From Spizellomyces punctatus DAOM BR117 (Eukaryota): a stretch of 64,000 nt of DNA. This document shows, piece by piece, positions 14,068 through 34,094 of the stretch. The notes under the pieces are model-generated. The model was not told the origin of the DNA, ran no database searches, and saw only the letters and a program-made list of their open reading frames with translations. The number at the start of each line of letters is the position of its first letter. Position 1 is the stretch's first letter. The stretch is taken from NCBI GenBank assembly GCA_000182565.2, contig KQ257453.1. One strand, written 5' to 3'. The position numbers were made by a program, and so were the translations under genes.

Positions 14068-17000
14068 CTAAATGAAACCACCAGCAACATCCCTAGTAGG
14101 TCCTTCTAGACTGACAGGCAATTCTACCACCGGGCCGCTCCTCCACACATTACCGACTAGATCAACCAACTTGCAAGTGATTCGGACAACGTATTCTCGT
14201 GTTTCTGGATTCCTACACTCCGTAAAAGACACCGCGCAGAGTTGGGCGAAGTACCCTTTCGCAAGGTTTGCCCGAAGAACATTTTGGGGGCAGTGGTGTT
14301 GCTAGAGGACTAGTATAAACGAGTATGTAGCGCCTGTGTGCAAATCCAATATGAATACCTTCGGGTAGGTTTCAAAGGCGTCTGGCAGCCTTTCCTTTGT
14401 GCCAACCATCGGGACTACCTCAGTGACATATTCGAGGGCGACGATCTCTCTTCCGTGTCCTTAAAGCGTGGTCCAGAAAGTTAATACATCCATCACATCC
14501 TTGCCGCAGTCCATGCTATAGTGGCAAGCCCACCTCTGAGCTTCCAGTTCGCGGGAGTTTTTACTGTCCCTTCCAGCTTTAAGATCAAGTCTTCGTAAGT
14601 CTTGACGCGACGAACTCCGTTTCTCCAATTGGGAGTTACTGTCACCTGCAATGGAAGCATTTGAATTTGAGTTGAGCATACTCTGTTGCTCGCATTCTGT
14701 TGTGTCAGCTGCTGTACCTGGACTGTGACGCTTGGTCGTGTGACAAAAAAGTAACTCGGGATTAATAGCGTCTCACGCAAGACTTGGGAGATTCTTCGTC
14801 CTACGTCCTATGTTGAGATATATGTTAGCATTTGTAGTGGGACCTCCTTCTAAACCATCCGGTGAAATAAACCTTGACTTGCATGTGGCTCTCATCCTCT
14901 ATTCCACGTAGTACATCAGCTAAATGCGGTGGCAACCGGCTTCCAGTTCTTGTGCTTGACACCGGCTGGGCATACATCATCAGGTAGAGCCGCGAGGGTG
15001 ATATTTCGGGTGCTCCTGCCTCGAAGAGCCCAGTCCTTGCAACAAACTGTCCTGTCAGCTCTGTCATGAATACACAGAATACCGCCCATGTGAAACAAAG
15101 TTAAGGAAACAACAATTCTTAACGTCATAAAGGGTAGCAATGCAATGCAAGTAAAAAGGATATGAATCAAGAACATCCAGGCTTGCATCGTCGATATCCA
15201 CAAAACTTTCTGCCAGGCAGCTGTATCCTCTAGAGCAAGTATCGAACGTTTCTTTGAAGGTTGACCACTTCATCGACTGCGTTACACGATCATCGCTGTG
15301 ATTTTCTAACGTTGCCAGGACTCCCTGTGTTGCTTCAAGGGTGGTCGCATGCAGTATCAGAAGATCATACTGAAATGCGCGGGACCCCTGGCTTGCCGCG
15401 AGTGACTGTGGACAGTTAGGGCGTGGGTAGCAAACGAATCGTCTGCGATGAAACACACCTTGATGGCCGTTGATGAGCTTCGAAGACTGTCAACGAGCTT
15501 GTGAAAAACTTCGATATTAGTTGCACTTTCTAAAAGTGCATTGATATATATGCCCGCCTGGGCAACATGTTCCAAACTGCGTATCCAAAAACCAACTGAC
15601 TCGGATGTAACCTGATCAGATACAAATCAGATACAATAAGTTGATTCGTTAGTCAAACGAAAGTTGAACTCTCCATACCTGAAGAACGAGTTCCTTAAAT
15701 ATATCGTGGGCAAGACCATAATGTCCAGCACACACGGCTTCTCGCCCAATACCATAAAGATGCCAGTACCCTTGGACACCTTCCTTCGACCGGATAAGAA
15801 GAGGGGTAATGGTTGAAGCAAAATCAGGCTGTCGGGAAGGCGGAATCTGCCCACACCGTAGCGCAACCCGCAGCGCCGCAGCCTAGCAAGCATATATACT
15901 CTTAGTTGACAGACACAAGGAACGGTTGGGGATAATCAGCGGCTTACAACGGTGCGAGCAGGTAACACTGAAAGGTAGACAATGGCCATCGAAATTAAAG
16001 TGTTAACCGAGTGATGATCGGAATCGGTTTGCTGGCTCAGCATTCGTAAAATCAAGTTGAAGAGTTTTGTTAAAACTGGGCGATATCATATCAATATACT
16101 GGCCACTATCGACAAAGCATTGCAGATACCTAGCGGATTCTTCTGTGATGCCGAGAGCATGGCATTCCATACCTCAGGACCGTCACGTAATCTCGACAGT
16201 TGCACCAGCGTCTCCGCGGTATATCTGAACTATTAAAGTTTAGAGATGTCAGCGCAACGCTTGAGTGACAGCTCCAGCCGAGATAGTACTTCTGACGCGG
16301 AGACATTCGTCGACATGGAAGCTAGTTTGTTGAGAAGCTGACGGACAGTCGCATGATCGACATCTGTAAACAGACGCCCAAGAGGTGAGAAAAAGAAGCG
16401 ATTGCCGATTTAATGATTGTATGAACTCAGACCTGAGATGAAACCAATTTCAATTCCATTCACTGAGAGATGAGTTTGCGCGAATGTGTACATCTTGCAT
16501 AATGTCCTAGCCGCATAGACAGAGCTCGCATCTCCCTGTGACATGATAGACTCAATGTCCGACAGGGACACCTGCTGGGATATCGTGTTCCCGCCTCCGG
16601 GACTGTGGAACAAGCGGAGGAGAAGGTCAAAGTGACCGCAGAGCACACTGAGCACTTGAAAGCCCTTCTGGCGGACGACGCTGCATCTCGCTGAACATGC
16701 AAACTTCATGATATACTGCAACCACAGTAAGTTAATTCCGGTTCCTCAGCTGTACAGTTGTCCTCCATTACCAAGAAGTTCTCCTGTGTGAAGTGATGCC
16801 CTTGTGCCTTTCCGAGTGTCCTTAAGCAGTCCAAAGCACTCCATTGCAATGGTATTCGGCGGTCCTGCTCCAGGTACCCAATCAGCAGTTCCACCTTCGT
16901 ACAGTTAGTTCATCGTGAAAATACGGTTCGGATCCTAATATACAATGCCTACCTGAGCATCAATCTGAAATATACAGCGCTTGGCAAGAACTGTCAGCGT

Positions 17001-18054
17001 GCGAGCAATGGTTATGATGTAGTCTTCATCGTTGGAGCCGCGGAGGTATCGTAAACAGGATTGTCGTGCCTAACCGTGTGATGGTGAGTAACGAAGCAGC
17101 ATTCTCGTTCATGCGCTTCGGTATTTACCAAATTTGCCAATTGCTGATCATGGTGCATGTGCCTGAAAATCCTGAAAACCTTTGCAGTTGTTGCAGTATT
17201 CTGAATTGGGTCTAGTTCTGCACGTCAGTATTTGGCGTTTCCTTGGTCCACGAGAACGTCATCGCACCTAGCACCATAAGCTCCAGTTTATCCATGATGT
17301 TGGCAGCAAAGGTCCTGGACTTTGAAGCAATCCTATCGGTCGCGAAAATAGCCGCCTCCAATTCTAAAGGATCATTGGAGTCCAAGAGAAGTCGAACACT
17401 ATTTGGCGATAATTAACCTCAACTCTGCGCGACACATCATTTTAAGAATGCTAACCGATGATGAACTTCAATCCGTTCTTGAACAATAGCAGACATATAT
17501 GCGAGCAGCCTGGAAATAAAAAGGAAAGCAAATGTGGGAATGGGCGAGCTACAGCGCATTCTGGGATATATATCATACCTGAGAGTGAGCGCACGAGCAA
17601 TGGGGTCATTGCTCGTCAAAACAACAAATATCCTTCGCAGCATGTCATCTACGCTAGTGATCTTCGTCAAGGCATATTGGCTATGTTTGAAGACCTTGAA
17701 AATTGACTGTCGCACGATATTATTGCTGCGATTTTCAAGATATAAACAATTTCTTCCAGGAATCTGTACCAAATTATTCTAAAGGTGACCGACCTTGTGC
17801 GCCAGTACTCGGCCAATTTGAGAAAACCTGGTGGGTTTTAATAAGGCCTTGGAACAAGGTCCCAGCGGGGCATGCATTTAGGATTACAGAAGCATACCAG
17901 AAGTGACCAGGTCAGGGGATGGGTATTTGACAAAAAAATGGGTATATTGTAAAATGGACTGCAATTTGTGCTCTAGCTTGGGGGACCTGTAGGCTTTATC
18001 CAATGCAACAAGCTCCTGCAGGCCGGGATCTACCAGCGACAACCCTTCCGACAT
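14068..18054 (-). CDS. INTS7: Integrator complex subunit 7, multi-exon
   Basis: FLKLAEYWRTSNNIVR, SNDPIARALTLR, LDSNDPLELEAAIFA, LLIGYLEQDRR and C-terminal GNVWRSGP match remembered animal INTS7 motifs. Confidence 0.88.
15090..15163 (-). other. U12-type (minor spliceosome) AT-AC intron in INTS7, 74 nt
   Basis: Minus-strand donor ATATCCTTTT, branch TTCCTTAAC (15108-15100), acceptor TTTCAC; removal joins ...LDVLDS to WAVFCVFMTELTG in frame. Confidence 0.9.
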
Positions 18055-23856: not shown

Positions 23857-26800
23857 ATGTCGTATTCAAACGGACGAGGCTATGGTGGTGGTACGTGATT
23901 ATGTGCAATTCCCACACGGGGTAGCAAAGACTTCTCTTGAGCACAGGCAGAAGACTTTACCATTTTCACTCAGATCGGCATTATCGGCAACGGGGCCCAA
24001 ATCGGCGACGGTATGAGGATAATACTCCCTCTAAATCACCTGAAGAGCTCAAAAGAGAACAGATCGTGTCGTATTTATTCCGACTAGGAGACTCGGTGCG
24101 TTTGATGGGCAGTAGAAGGGAAAAGGGGGCCCGGAGGGTGTCATTGGAAGCAAATCATGCACATGTGGCTTTATACTGACGCCCGGTTATGATACATCGC
24201 TACCAGGATCAAAAACAGCAGGCGGATCTGTGCGCGACACAACTGCTACGAGACTTTGGAACACATCCTCAAATTGTGCGGAGTGTATTCAAGGAATGGT
24301 AAAGCACAACCTATCTTTCTTATCTTTTTAGACTGCCTGTTAGCTAAGACCTAGCAGCATAACCCATGTCCCTCAGAAAGTATCCTTGTACGGCACCTTA
24401 AGCGGGTTGCTGAATGCACGGAATTTTGACGCTGGTGCGGCCATCATTGAAATCACCTGTGAGGCTTTGCAAGAGGCCCTCAACAACAGCGACTTCCGCT
24501 CCACCAAGATTCTCTTGCGTTACATCGCAGAACTCGTGAACGCAAACGTTATCCAATCGACGCAACTTATCGGCCTGTACGATCTATTTTTGAACGTGCT
24601 GAATGAGCCAAATGTGCGACCGGAAAGGGCTGATGCGTTTGTCTATTCTGTGCTTGCGAGCATTCCATGGGCCGCACGTCAGCTTAGCGACACGGAAGCA
24701 ACTGAACTTGAACGCATTCTGGGGTCCATTGAGAAGCACATGAATCAGCGGCAAGCAAATCTTGCAACTAGTGGGATTGAACAGGCGATGGAAGCGCTGA
24801 AGGTGTACCGCGACGTACCCGAAGGTGAACCGTATCTCGTGACGGATCGGCTGGAGAGTCTGTGGCGCCAGATCATTCAGCTCAAGCAGGCCGACGAATG
24901 GGACCTGAAAATCATCTTGAGACCTACAGATTTTACCGATCTACTCAGCACGCAACTACAACATGAGCTGAGGCCCATATCCATTCCATCTGGAGATGTG
25001 AAGTTTTCCTATCAACCTGTTTTTCGTATTTTCGATGACTCTGTTCAAGGTGTTGAAGTAAGCCACGGTTGCGGCAATCTAGTTCGTCTCAATCAATCAC
25101 TCACCAGAATTGTCTCAGAATATCATTGTCCGATTACCCTCCGTGCTGAGCATTTCACGGTTCATTTTGGACGACTTGATTTATGATATCATCCGAATCT
25201 TCTCCCACAATCACCGGGAAGTGTGCCGAATGCTCACAGATCTGGAGACTTTTTTGAACGGGTACTATCTCAGGGATGGAGGGTTCAACGTTATGGCCAG
25301 CGTGATAGAAACCGTGTTCGGTGAACTGCTCCGGCTCCCACGGAGTGGTGAGCGATCAGTGTACTATGCTACTCTGCTGATAGATCTTATCAAAGAGGAC
25401 TTGCAGACGATTCCCAAGGTCCTAGGACGGGCCATACGAACATTGTTTTCAAGGTTGGACGGATCGCAAGGTTTGGGTGGGGGAATGGACGTGGAAGCTA
25501 TTCGGAGATTCAGTGAGTGGTTTGGCATCCACCTGAGCAACTTCGGATTTATGTGGAAGTGGCAGGACTGGTCTGTATTTGTCATTGCTCGAGAAGTTAC
25601 TTCCTTACATGCACACCATCCTAACTGAGCTCGCTGCTGTACAGGGAGCCCGTCCTGTCTGTTGAACAAGACTCTGCCTGCTTTGTGTTCATTCGGGAAA
25701 CTCTGGAACGATGTATCCGTTTATCGTATTGGGAGCGCGTCCAGGGCAGCCTTCCAGAAGCATTTGCGGAGAGTGAAATTATCTTCCCTCAGGAACCGCC
25801 TCATCCGAACTTTAAATTTGAGTCAGAGGAGACCACTGGAGGTATAACAGGATGATCACTTGATGGCTGATAACGGCAGAGATGCTTACCCAAGACTATC
25901 CAGATGCACAGCTTTATGAGTTAACCTCCCAACTGCGATCATCGTTAGCAACGAAGAGCGGGGCAGAAGAAATCTCAGATCTATTGCAAAGGATTCGTGA
26001 TCATGCCACCAGCAACGCTCCCAACGCTATGGAAGGAGTTGTTGGAGCGTCTGGCGGAACTGGGACACCTGAGGATCTAGCTCGAGAAGCGCTTGTCCAA
26101 TGCGTTATGCAACAAGGCAGCAAAAGTTTCAGTCACGTGTTGAATGTGGTTGAACGGTAAGCGCTGTCATCGTCAAACGATTAGGTCATGATGATTGACC
26201 CGTTTTACATCTTTAGGTACCTAACAGTACTACGCGATTACAATGGCACTGAAGAGGCACGAAGCCACACCGTTCGGATAATAGTTGACTTCTGGAAGGA
26301 TAATACGCAATTCTTGGAGATCATCCTGGACAAGCTCATGAACTACCGCGTTGTCACACCTAAAAGCATCCTGTCCTGGGCTTTGGATCCAAGTGTGTTG
26401 GATTCACACTACACGAGGTATGCAGCTAAACCAGCAGGGCATGCAAATGACGCAGTACTTGAACTATGTTCTGACTATAAAAAGGTTCCATCTTTGGTCA
26501 ATTGTACGCACAACCTTGGCCAAGGTGAATTTCAAGATAGCGCAAATAACCGCGAAACTTGAAGCAGCACGGAGGCAATCATCCGTAGACAACGACCTCA
26601 TGTTGCAAGGTACGTTGGATTGGATTGATTATAGATAAGGTCGGGGCTAATTCATAAACTGCCGTGCCTATAGATGGCGATGACAGTGTCATCCAATCTT
26701 TGGAGGAAAACCGACAAGGTGCTTTGCGAGAACAAAAAGAAGTCTTCCTGCATGTATTCCAGGTACATTACTATCCTGAATATCCCTTGGAAAATTGAAT

Positions 26801-32663: not shown

Positions 32664-34094
32664 CTACGATCGTCGTCGAGAGCCAAAATAGCTCCCTGTT
32701 TGCCTTGAGGTATTGGATATTGATGCAAGGCGCGTGGACCTCTTCGGGGTGACAGTTATGTACGAATGATCTTCATATGATGTTAGGTCCGCGCTCTGTA
32801 ATGGTGGTGGGGTAGGAGAATCCACTACAACACTCGCATCTTTCGAGTGTCGAGTTCTTTTCAGAGTTGAGGTGTTCTTCAGATCGCTTTCCCAGTACGC
32901 TTTTGGGTTCGCAGATTTCGCGGCCCGTTCGATCCGCTCCCATGCTTCTCTCGCTTGTTTGCGCATATCTTGAAGATCGGCAAAGTCATCCTCGTCAGGT
33001 GATTCCGGAGTTGCGACCTCTTTGAAAGTCCGCTTTCGGACAGGTGTGCGGACAGATGTACGCTTGTTTTCACGTAGCCCGGTTTCAGAATCCGAGCCAT
33101 ATGCTTCGAGTTCATTGTCGGCGTCGACTGCCACGTCCTGTGCCTTGTACAATCTCGAACCTCCACGCGACGGGTCCGCTACAAGCCGTTCATACTTTTG
33201 AAATTCGCAAAGAATATGCTCAACGTCCAAAGGTCGCAAAACTAATGGATCGTTTGTGTGCAGAACGTCTCCTTTGTCAAGTGTCTCGTAGGCATTGCGT
33301 AGCAATTTGTTGACCCTGACCGTCAAGCGATTGATACTATACCCGGTGAGCTCACGGTAGCCTAGGATCTCCAACCCTTTTTTGGCACCAGGACCAGGTA
33401 CAGGCGCGGTCGGCGCTGGTATGAGTCCGCACATGAACATGTCACAGGACTCTTGATATGCATGAAAATCGCCCACAAGCTCGAAGCGAAGCATATTCCC
33501 GTACACCTCCTGAAAACTCGGCTCACGGGGATTATCTGGGGGACCAAAAAGGGATTTTCCCACGTCGGCGGATAAGTGCCAGTTCACTTTCATTGCGTCG
33601 ACAACAACCTTGTACGGTGCACAGAAGGTGAATGCCCGTGTTCTCCAAGATTTGCCGGTTCGCTGTTTTGCACGTTCCCATTCCGCAAACTTCTGTAGTG
33701 CATCATCTAAATTGCTGATATATCCCAGCTCTCTATTGTAGGGAGGATTGGACAGCCATCTGTGAGTGATCACGTTCCAGAGAAAGTGAGGTTTTCTAGG
33801 ATCTCTTCTGTGAAGGATCTCCCGGATGACCCTGGACCCTCGGTCGTCCTCGCGTCTACTGAACCAGTCAGTATTGCGAATGGGGCAACGGCAACTTTCA
33901 AACTACAGGTGGATTGCGGACCTGTGGTGGCAAAAGTGAAACTCTGCCAATACACTGTCATTTGTCCATTTGGAAGGCGGCTCTCCCCGAGCGCGTCGGA
34001 GCGCTACACGCTCTCGCTCGAGTAGGTAGTGAAGGAAGAGATCCCAGGACTGCTTCTTGGCGAAGGAAGCAGAGGAGGTGCCGCACCAGTGCAT
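32664..34094 (-). CDS. 5-hmdU DNA kinase helical-domain protein (aGPT-Pplase1/HMUDK_hel family), 2 exons, with basic/acidic disordered C-terminal tail
   Basis: ERERVALRRARGEPPSKWTNDSVLAEFHFCHHR/REDDRGSR across a 66-nt GT-AG intron (33921-33856), then GDFHAYQESCD, PGPGAKKGL, DVEHILCEFQKY. Confidence 0.82.

Follow-up and report, generated by a model that had tools for sequence, protein, structure and literature searches.

Minor introns have been described both in the Integrator gene INTS7 and in early-diverging fungi. In human, INTS7 is among the genes known to carry a minor intron (PMC9881141), and in U4atac-mutant human cells the minor introns of INTS7 and INTS10 were retained, the INTS7 and INTS10 proteins were reduced and snRNAs were 3′-extended (PMC9881141). 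A separate study postulated that mis-spliced U12 introns of INTS4, INTS7, INTS8 and INTS10 explain the accumulation of snRNA precursors that it observed (PMC6800510). For mouse Ints7, the branch site has been described as suboptimal (PMC8848931). Among fungi, Spizellomyces punctatus is listed with the species that contain minor introns (PMC10639083), and minor spliceosomal RNAs were found in this organism (PMC2396436). The S. punctatus rows in supplement 3 of PMC2396436 give U11 with the 5′ sequence UAAAAGGG, U12 with GAGUAAGGAUAA and U6atac with CGAAGGAGAGA; among the 61 places in that supplement where "punctatus" occurs, no U4atac row for this species was seen.

Here we analyzed an AT-AC intron in the INTS7 orthologue of S. 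punctatus DAOM BR117, located within a 64-kb stretch of the genome (the window). The intron agrees in lineage and in type with the minor introns of early-diverging fungi (Rhizophagus, Rhizopus, Phycomyces and chytrids; PMC10639083, PMC2396436) and it belongs to the same gene family as the human and mouse INTS7 minor intron (PMC9881141, PMC6800510, PMC8848931). By our own reading, the U11, U12 and U6atac elements reported for S. punctatus are complementary to the CCUUUU, UCCUUA-C and UCCUU of the intron, respectively. An Rfam scan of the 64-kb window gave 0 matches and placed no snRNA gene within it.

The intron is known already: it is present in the public coding sequence, the species has been published as containing minor introns, and the gene is a known minor-intron gene in mammals. 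The literature search returned no paper singling out the S. punctatus INTS7 intron, and INTS7 has 0 occurrences in passages and one supplement of PMC10639083; the intron database announced in that paper may list it. The finding is correct but ordinary and matters little as a discovery. Its use lies elsewhere, as a clean and well-supported case for checking annotation pipelines, because the same site is mis-modelled in Spizellomyces sp. 'palustris', Entrophospora sp. SA101 and Stegastes partitus.

Host gene and genomic setting

The host gene is SPPG_02996, whose public protein (P0001) has 927 residues. When the exon upstream of the AT-AC intron was used as a query, it matched S. punctatus P0001 at 100% and a protein of Spizellomyces sp. 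'palustris' (P0002) at 87%. Minus-strand open reading frame pieces between 18084 and 15357 were compared with the Pfam family INTS7_N (PF24436, the N-terminal ARM/HEAT domain) and scored 67.5, 46, 29.5 and 23 bits, so that two exons (67.5 and 46 bits) exceeded the cut-off of 42. The helical-bundle family INTS7_HB (PF24437) reached 18.5 bits on one exon, under its cut-off of 23, and both PF24436 and PF24437 are among the precomputed domains of P0001. Full-length P0001 also matched human INTS7 in solved Integrator structures (PDB 7cun_G, E 2.6e-64). Judged by these domain and full-length matches, the host gene is INTS7. The INTS7 C-terminal domain PF22965 is absent from the precomputed domains of P0001 and present in the animal matches; the C-terminal part of the chytrid protein is nonetheless alignable to human INTS7, up to residue 837 (7cun_G).

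Gene-dense and ordinary for a chytrid, the window also contains open reading frames assigned to the families MFS transporter, AAA ATPase, histidyl-tRNA synthetase, MIF4G, amine oxidase, DUF1349, TAF4, DEAD helicase, DnaJ-X and ELP1. In addition, an unbroken 412-residue open reading frame on the minus strand (32664..33902) matches the Pfam family HMUDK_hel (E 2e-13, 50.8 bits, cut-off 25). HMUDK_hel is the helical domain of 5-hmdU DNA kinase, which belongs to phage DNA hypermodification systems, and its appearance in a chytrid was therefore unexpected.

Splice signals and competing junctions

The preliminary description of this DNA had placed a canonical U12-type AT-AC intron of 74 nt in INTS7, at 15163..15090 on the minus strand, and when read on the sequence all of its coordinates were correct (Table 1). 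The minus strand runs ...GAT TC/ATATCCTTTT ... GTTTCCTTAACTTTGTTTCAC/A TGG GCG across the intron and its flanking exons. The 5′ splice site agrees with the pattern /[AG]TATCCTT of U12-type introns, and the branch site agrees with TCCTTRAY at ~10-15 nt from the 3′ end, an arrangement that needs no long polypyrimidine tract. The branch motif TCCTTAAC at 15107..15100 is followed by 10 nt, as had been described, and the intron tail reads TTTGTTTCAC; between the presumed branch adenosine and the final base of the intron the distance is 11 nt. The termini are AT and AC, and removal of the intron leaves an open homologous frame. Compared with the class of U12-type AT-AC introns, this intron shares the donor /ATATCCTTT, the branch motif TTCCTTAAC at 10-11 nt from the 3′ end, the AC end, a non-zero phase and a host with reported minor snRNAs, and it shows no sequence departure; it is short (74 nt), as are all introns of the chytrid INTS7 (53-74 nt). 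The 18 remaining introns of the gene are all GT-AG and very short (53-74 nt), and the minor intron does not exceed the longest of them.

Table 1. Coordinates of the INTS7 orthologue and of the AT-AC intron with its signals and flanking exons (positions in the 64-kb window).
Feature	Position	Strand	Basis
SPPG_02996 (INTS7 orthologue), coding sequence in 20 exons; the 19 introns measure 53-74 nt	14068..18054	-	Unique exact spliced mapping of P0001
Exon 15, 242 nt, ending ...GAT TC (first two bases of codon Ser677)	15164..15405	-	Spliced mapping of P0001
Intron 15 of 19, 74 nt, AT-AC, phase 2 within codon Ser677 (TC/A)	15090..15163	-	Sequence, mapping and profile test
Predicted 5′ splice site ATATCCTTT, U12-type donor consensus	15155..15163	-	Motif match
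Predicted branch-site motif TTCCTTAAC; presumed branch adenosine 15101	15100..15108	-	Motif match
3′ terminal dinucleotide AC	15090..15091	-	Sequence and spliced mapping
Exon 16, 217 nt, starting A TGG GCG (third base of Ser677, then Trp-Ala)	14873..15089	-	Spliced mapping
In-frame stop if the intron is retained; product without ~250 C-terminal residues	15064..15066	-	Open reading frame 15064..15489

The public gene model bears directly on the junction. Exact spliced mapping of P0001 onto the window had a single solution, in which 18 introns are GT-AG and one, 15163..15090, is AT-AC, and the deposited protein reads ...DASLDVLDSWAVFCVFMTELTGQFVARTG... over the junction. The peptide proposed from joining the two frames, LDVLDSWAVFCVFMTELTG, was found letter for letter in P0001, and the unspliced frame does stop at 15064, as had also been claimed (open reading frame 15064..15489, stop codon 15066..15064). 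The AT-AC junction is already used by the reference annotation of the S. punctatus genome, and its use in the public coding sequence suggests transcript support.

To compare the AT-AC junction with its competitors, all introns bounded by suitable dinucleotides and keeping the frame open were enumerated; there were 267, of which 115 had lengths of 35-200 nt. These 115 candidates (GT/GC-AG or AT-AC) were scored with a profile HMM; of 120 aligned homologues, 108 went into it, and both Spizellomyces proteins were kept out. The product of the AT-AC intron ranked first at 50.7 bits, with a margin of only 6.9 bits over the runner-up at 43.8 bits. The top GT-AG candidates were 15123..14966 (43.8 bits) and 15123..15047 (42.2 bits). 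Among the 110 homologues spanning residues 670-685, 72 were gap-free and colinear with the spliced product, and Cys682 was found in 79. The junction falls in a recognisable motif, roughly sFDaDxxtLxxiqL/lQxsC.

These scores weigh upon the possibility that a major GT-AG intron close by is the true one (e.g. 15123..15059, 65 nt, GTTAAG...ACAGAG; or 15082..15036), with the U12-like motifs being partly coding. Such introns keep the frame open, have sizes within the local range, and resemble the kind of model found in the S. 'palustris' annotation. However, they add YPFYLHCIATLYD-like residues and remove the conserved xxxC-xxM segment, the best of them score 43.8 and 42.2 bits against 50.7 for the AT-AC product, and none is used in the public S. 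punctatus model, while the S. 'palustris' protein itself is an outlier among the homologues, with an insertion at the junction column. We consider a GT-AG junction here very improbable.

A different question is which spliceosome would act on the AT-AC intron. Rare AT-AC introns of the U2 type exist, and a genuine AT-AC intron at this site might in principle be removed by the major spliceosome. Against this reading, both U12-specific elements are perfect here, the 11 nt separating the branch from the 3′ end fall within the U12 range, ordinary GT donors are found in all 18 remaining introns, and U11, U12 and U6atac of S. punctatus are given in the PMC2396436 supplement. Removal by the U2-type machinery would thus be a most unlikely outcome.

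The motifs could also be a coincidence in a region that is never spliced, in which case the locus would yield a truncated INTS7. Single motifs do occur at chance frequency: RTATCCTT has 7 matches in the window against 3.3 expected, and TCCTTAAC has 2 against 1.6, so that each is unremarkable alone. The joint signature, defined as the donor and the branch motif followed by 8-21 nt to AC or AG within an intron of at most 100 nt, was found once in the window, and 14 of 1494 first-order Markov simulations, each of 64 kb, also produced it, a tally that asks for neither the correct strand nor the correct frame nor homology. On the same terms, the motif pair was not rare once introns of up to 1000 nt were allowed (127 of 1000 simulations). 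Against coincidence stand both the rarity of the joint signature (14/1494) and the open frame, which goes on past the intron through four more exons whose products can be aligned with animal INTS7 as far as the C terminus. A chance origin of the signals is accordingly given scarcely any weight.

Taken together, the signals, the public annotation and the homology at the junction indicate that 15163..15090 (minus strand) is very probably intron 15 of 19 of S. punctatus INTS7, a U12-type AT-AC intron that would be removed by the minor spliceosome. The interpretation put forward in the preliminary description is therefore supported by all of the U12 hallmarks as well as by the conserved, colinear protein that splicing restores.

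The window contains no second minor intron. Six more RTATCCTT donors were considered (324+, 1402+, 17628+, 24380+, 18798/18805- and 37594/37601-), and none is accompanied by a strict branch motif. For the donors at 324+ and 18805-, relaxed branch matches imply introns of ~760 nt, ten times as long as is usual here. The donor at 17628+ is antisense to INTS7, whose coding sequence is on the minus strand, those at 18798- and 37594- run antisense to open reading frames on the plus strand (HisRS and TAF4), and that at 24380+ lies within the MIF4G coding open reading frame.

Minor splicing and INTS7 output

Following the U12 pathway, U11 would pair with the donor ATATCCTTT and U12 with the branch site TCCTTAAC, leaving adenosine 15101 bulged, and U6atac would subsequently take over the donor from U11. 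With the intron cleaved off after ...CAC, TC would be joined to A, and codon Ser677 and the reading frame restored. Were the intron retained, translation would stop at 15066..15064 and ~250 C-terminal residues would be lost. Because retention would bring in this stop, INTS7 output would be expected to depend on minor splicing.

A dependence of this kind has been shown only in human cells; chytrid INTS7 output may depend on minor-spliceosome activity in the same way. The preliminary description had suggested that a minor intron in INTS7 could link minor splicing, via Integrator, to snRNA maturation. The link had already been postulated (PMC6800510) and tested in human cells (PMC9881141); its extension to the chytrid is by inference only.

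The junction codon in other INTS7 genes and gene models

In the alignment of P0001 with human INTS7 (7cun_G), the codon at the chytrid junction (Ser677) is paired with Leu705 of the human protein, within ...NVEL/QQQSC. The human U12 intron is at chr1:211966499-211967877 on the minus strand (PMC9881141 Supplementary Figure S5) and the next human INTS7 intron is at 211952702-211966429 (PMC9881141 Table S3); by subtraction of these coordinates, the human exon that follows the U12 intron is 69 nt long. In normal fish INTS7, the distance from NVEL to FQEYG is 23 residues, equal to 69 nt. The exon following the minor intron differs in length between the two lineages, being 217 nt in the chytrid and 69 nt in human, and the branch site, perfect in chytrid INTS7, is described as suboptimal in mouse Ints7 (PMC8848931).

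Three animal gene models are broken at the junction column of the alignment or directly beside it. The Camelus ferus model (P0138) has a break exactly at NVEL/. The Stegastes partitus model (P0293) departs at ...LRN, contains a spurious segment of 18 residues and resumes at S/FQEYG. The Mya arenaria model (P0097) is without 22 residues (66 nt) that are found after the junction in Ruditapes, a bivalve gap of 66 nt as compared with the human exon of 69 nt. At the junction residue itself, P0097 has His instead of Gln, which fits a skipped phase-2 exon or, equally, a phase-0 exon combined with a species difference. Among the 122 vertebrate sequences, 120 continue normally past NVEL (116 identified by regular expression and 4 by inspection), and no vertebrate isoform simply lacking the short exon was found among the matches listed (120 of 644).

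From the broken Camelus, Stegastes and Mya models, we infer that animal INTS7 genes have exon boundaries at the junction codon. Together with the protein alignment, this makes it probable that the chytrid and human minor introns occupy the same codon. The occurrence of broken mammal, fish and bivalve models at one codon suggests an ancient shared intron, and the S. punctatus intron adds a single observation in favour of an INTS7 minor intron older than the divergence of fungi and animals. Such an age is relevant to the question of why snRNA-processing genes retain minor introns, be it for regulatory or for neutral reasons.

A far-reaching reading would hold that the INTS7 minor intron is orthologous and has not moved from its codon since fungi and animals shared an ancestor (in chytrids, Glomeromycotina, bivalves and vertebrates), kept not as a frozen accident but as an ancient feedback loop making Integrator output depend on minor-spliceosome activity. 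The loop would arise because Integrator matures Pol II snRNAs, including U11, U12 and U4atac. We regard this reading as unlikely; for minor introns generally, neutral retention has been argued (PMC10639083).

It had further been claimed that gene predictors restricted to GT-AG introns would mis-annotate this gene. The worry is not applicable to the S. punctatus reference model, in which the deposited protein already has the AT-AC junction; for relatives and other genomes (S. 'palustris', Entrophospora and Stegastes) it holds.

In Entrophospora sp. SA101 (Glomeromycotina), two proteins (P0153 and P0160) read FEILES/YPLGFF at the chytrid junction column, continue with ~40 low-complexity residues after YPLGFF, and then reach the conserved ...FQC motif. 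The residues YP[FL] are the expected phase-2 read-through product of [AG]TATCCTT, and both proteins look like in-frame read-through of a U12 donor. A translation of the branch site was sought in the Entrophospora read-through and was not found, so only the donor signature counts for this species.

In the sister species S. 'palustris', P0002 reads through the donor as DS-YPF, then switches frame and has the branch region translated as VVSLTLFHMG. This read-through shows that both the donor and the branch motifs are conserved there as well, at least at the codon level. The AT-AC intron has likely led to mis-annotation of INTS7 in the P0002 model. The pieces of the model correspond to 15360..15154, 15146..15084 and 15049..14873 of the window, and a conserved AVFCVFMTELTG-like segment is omitted from it.
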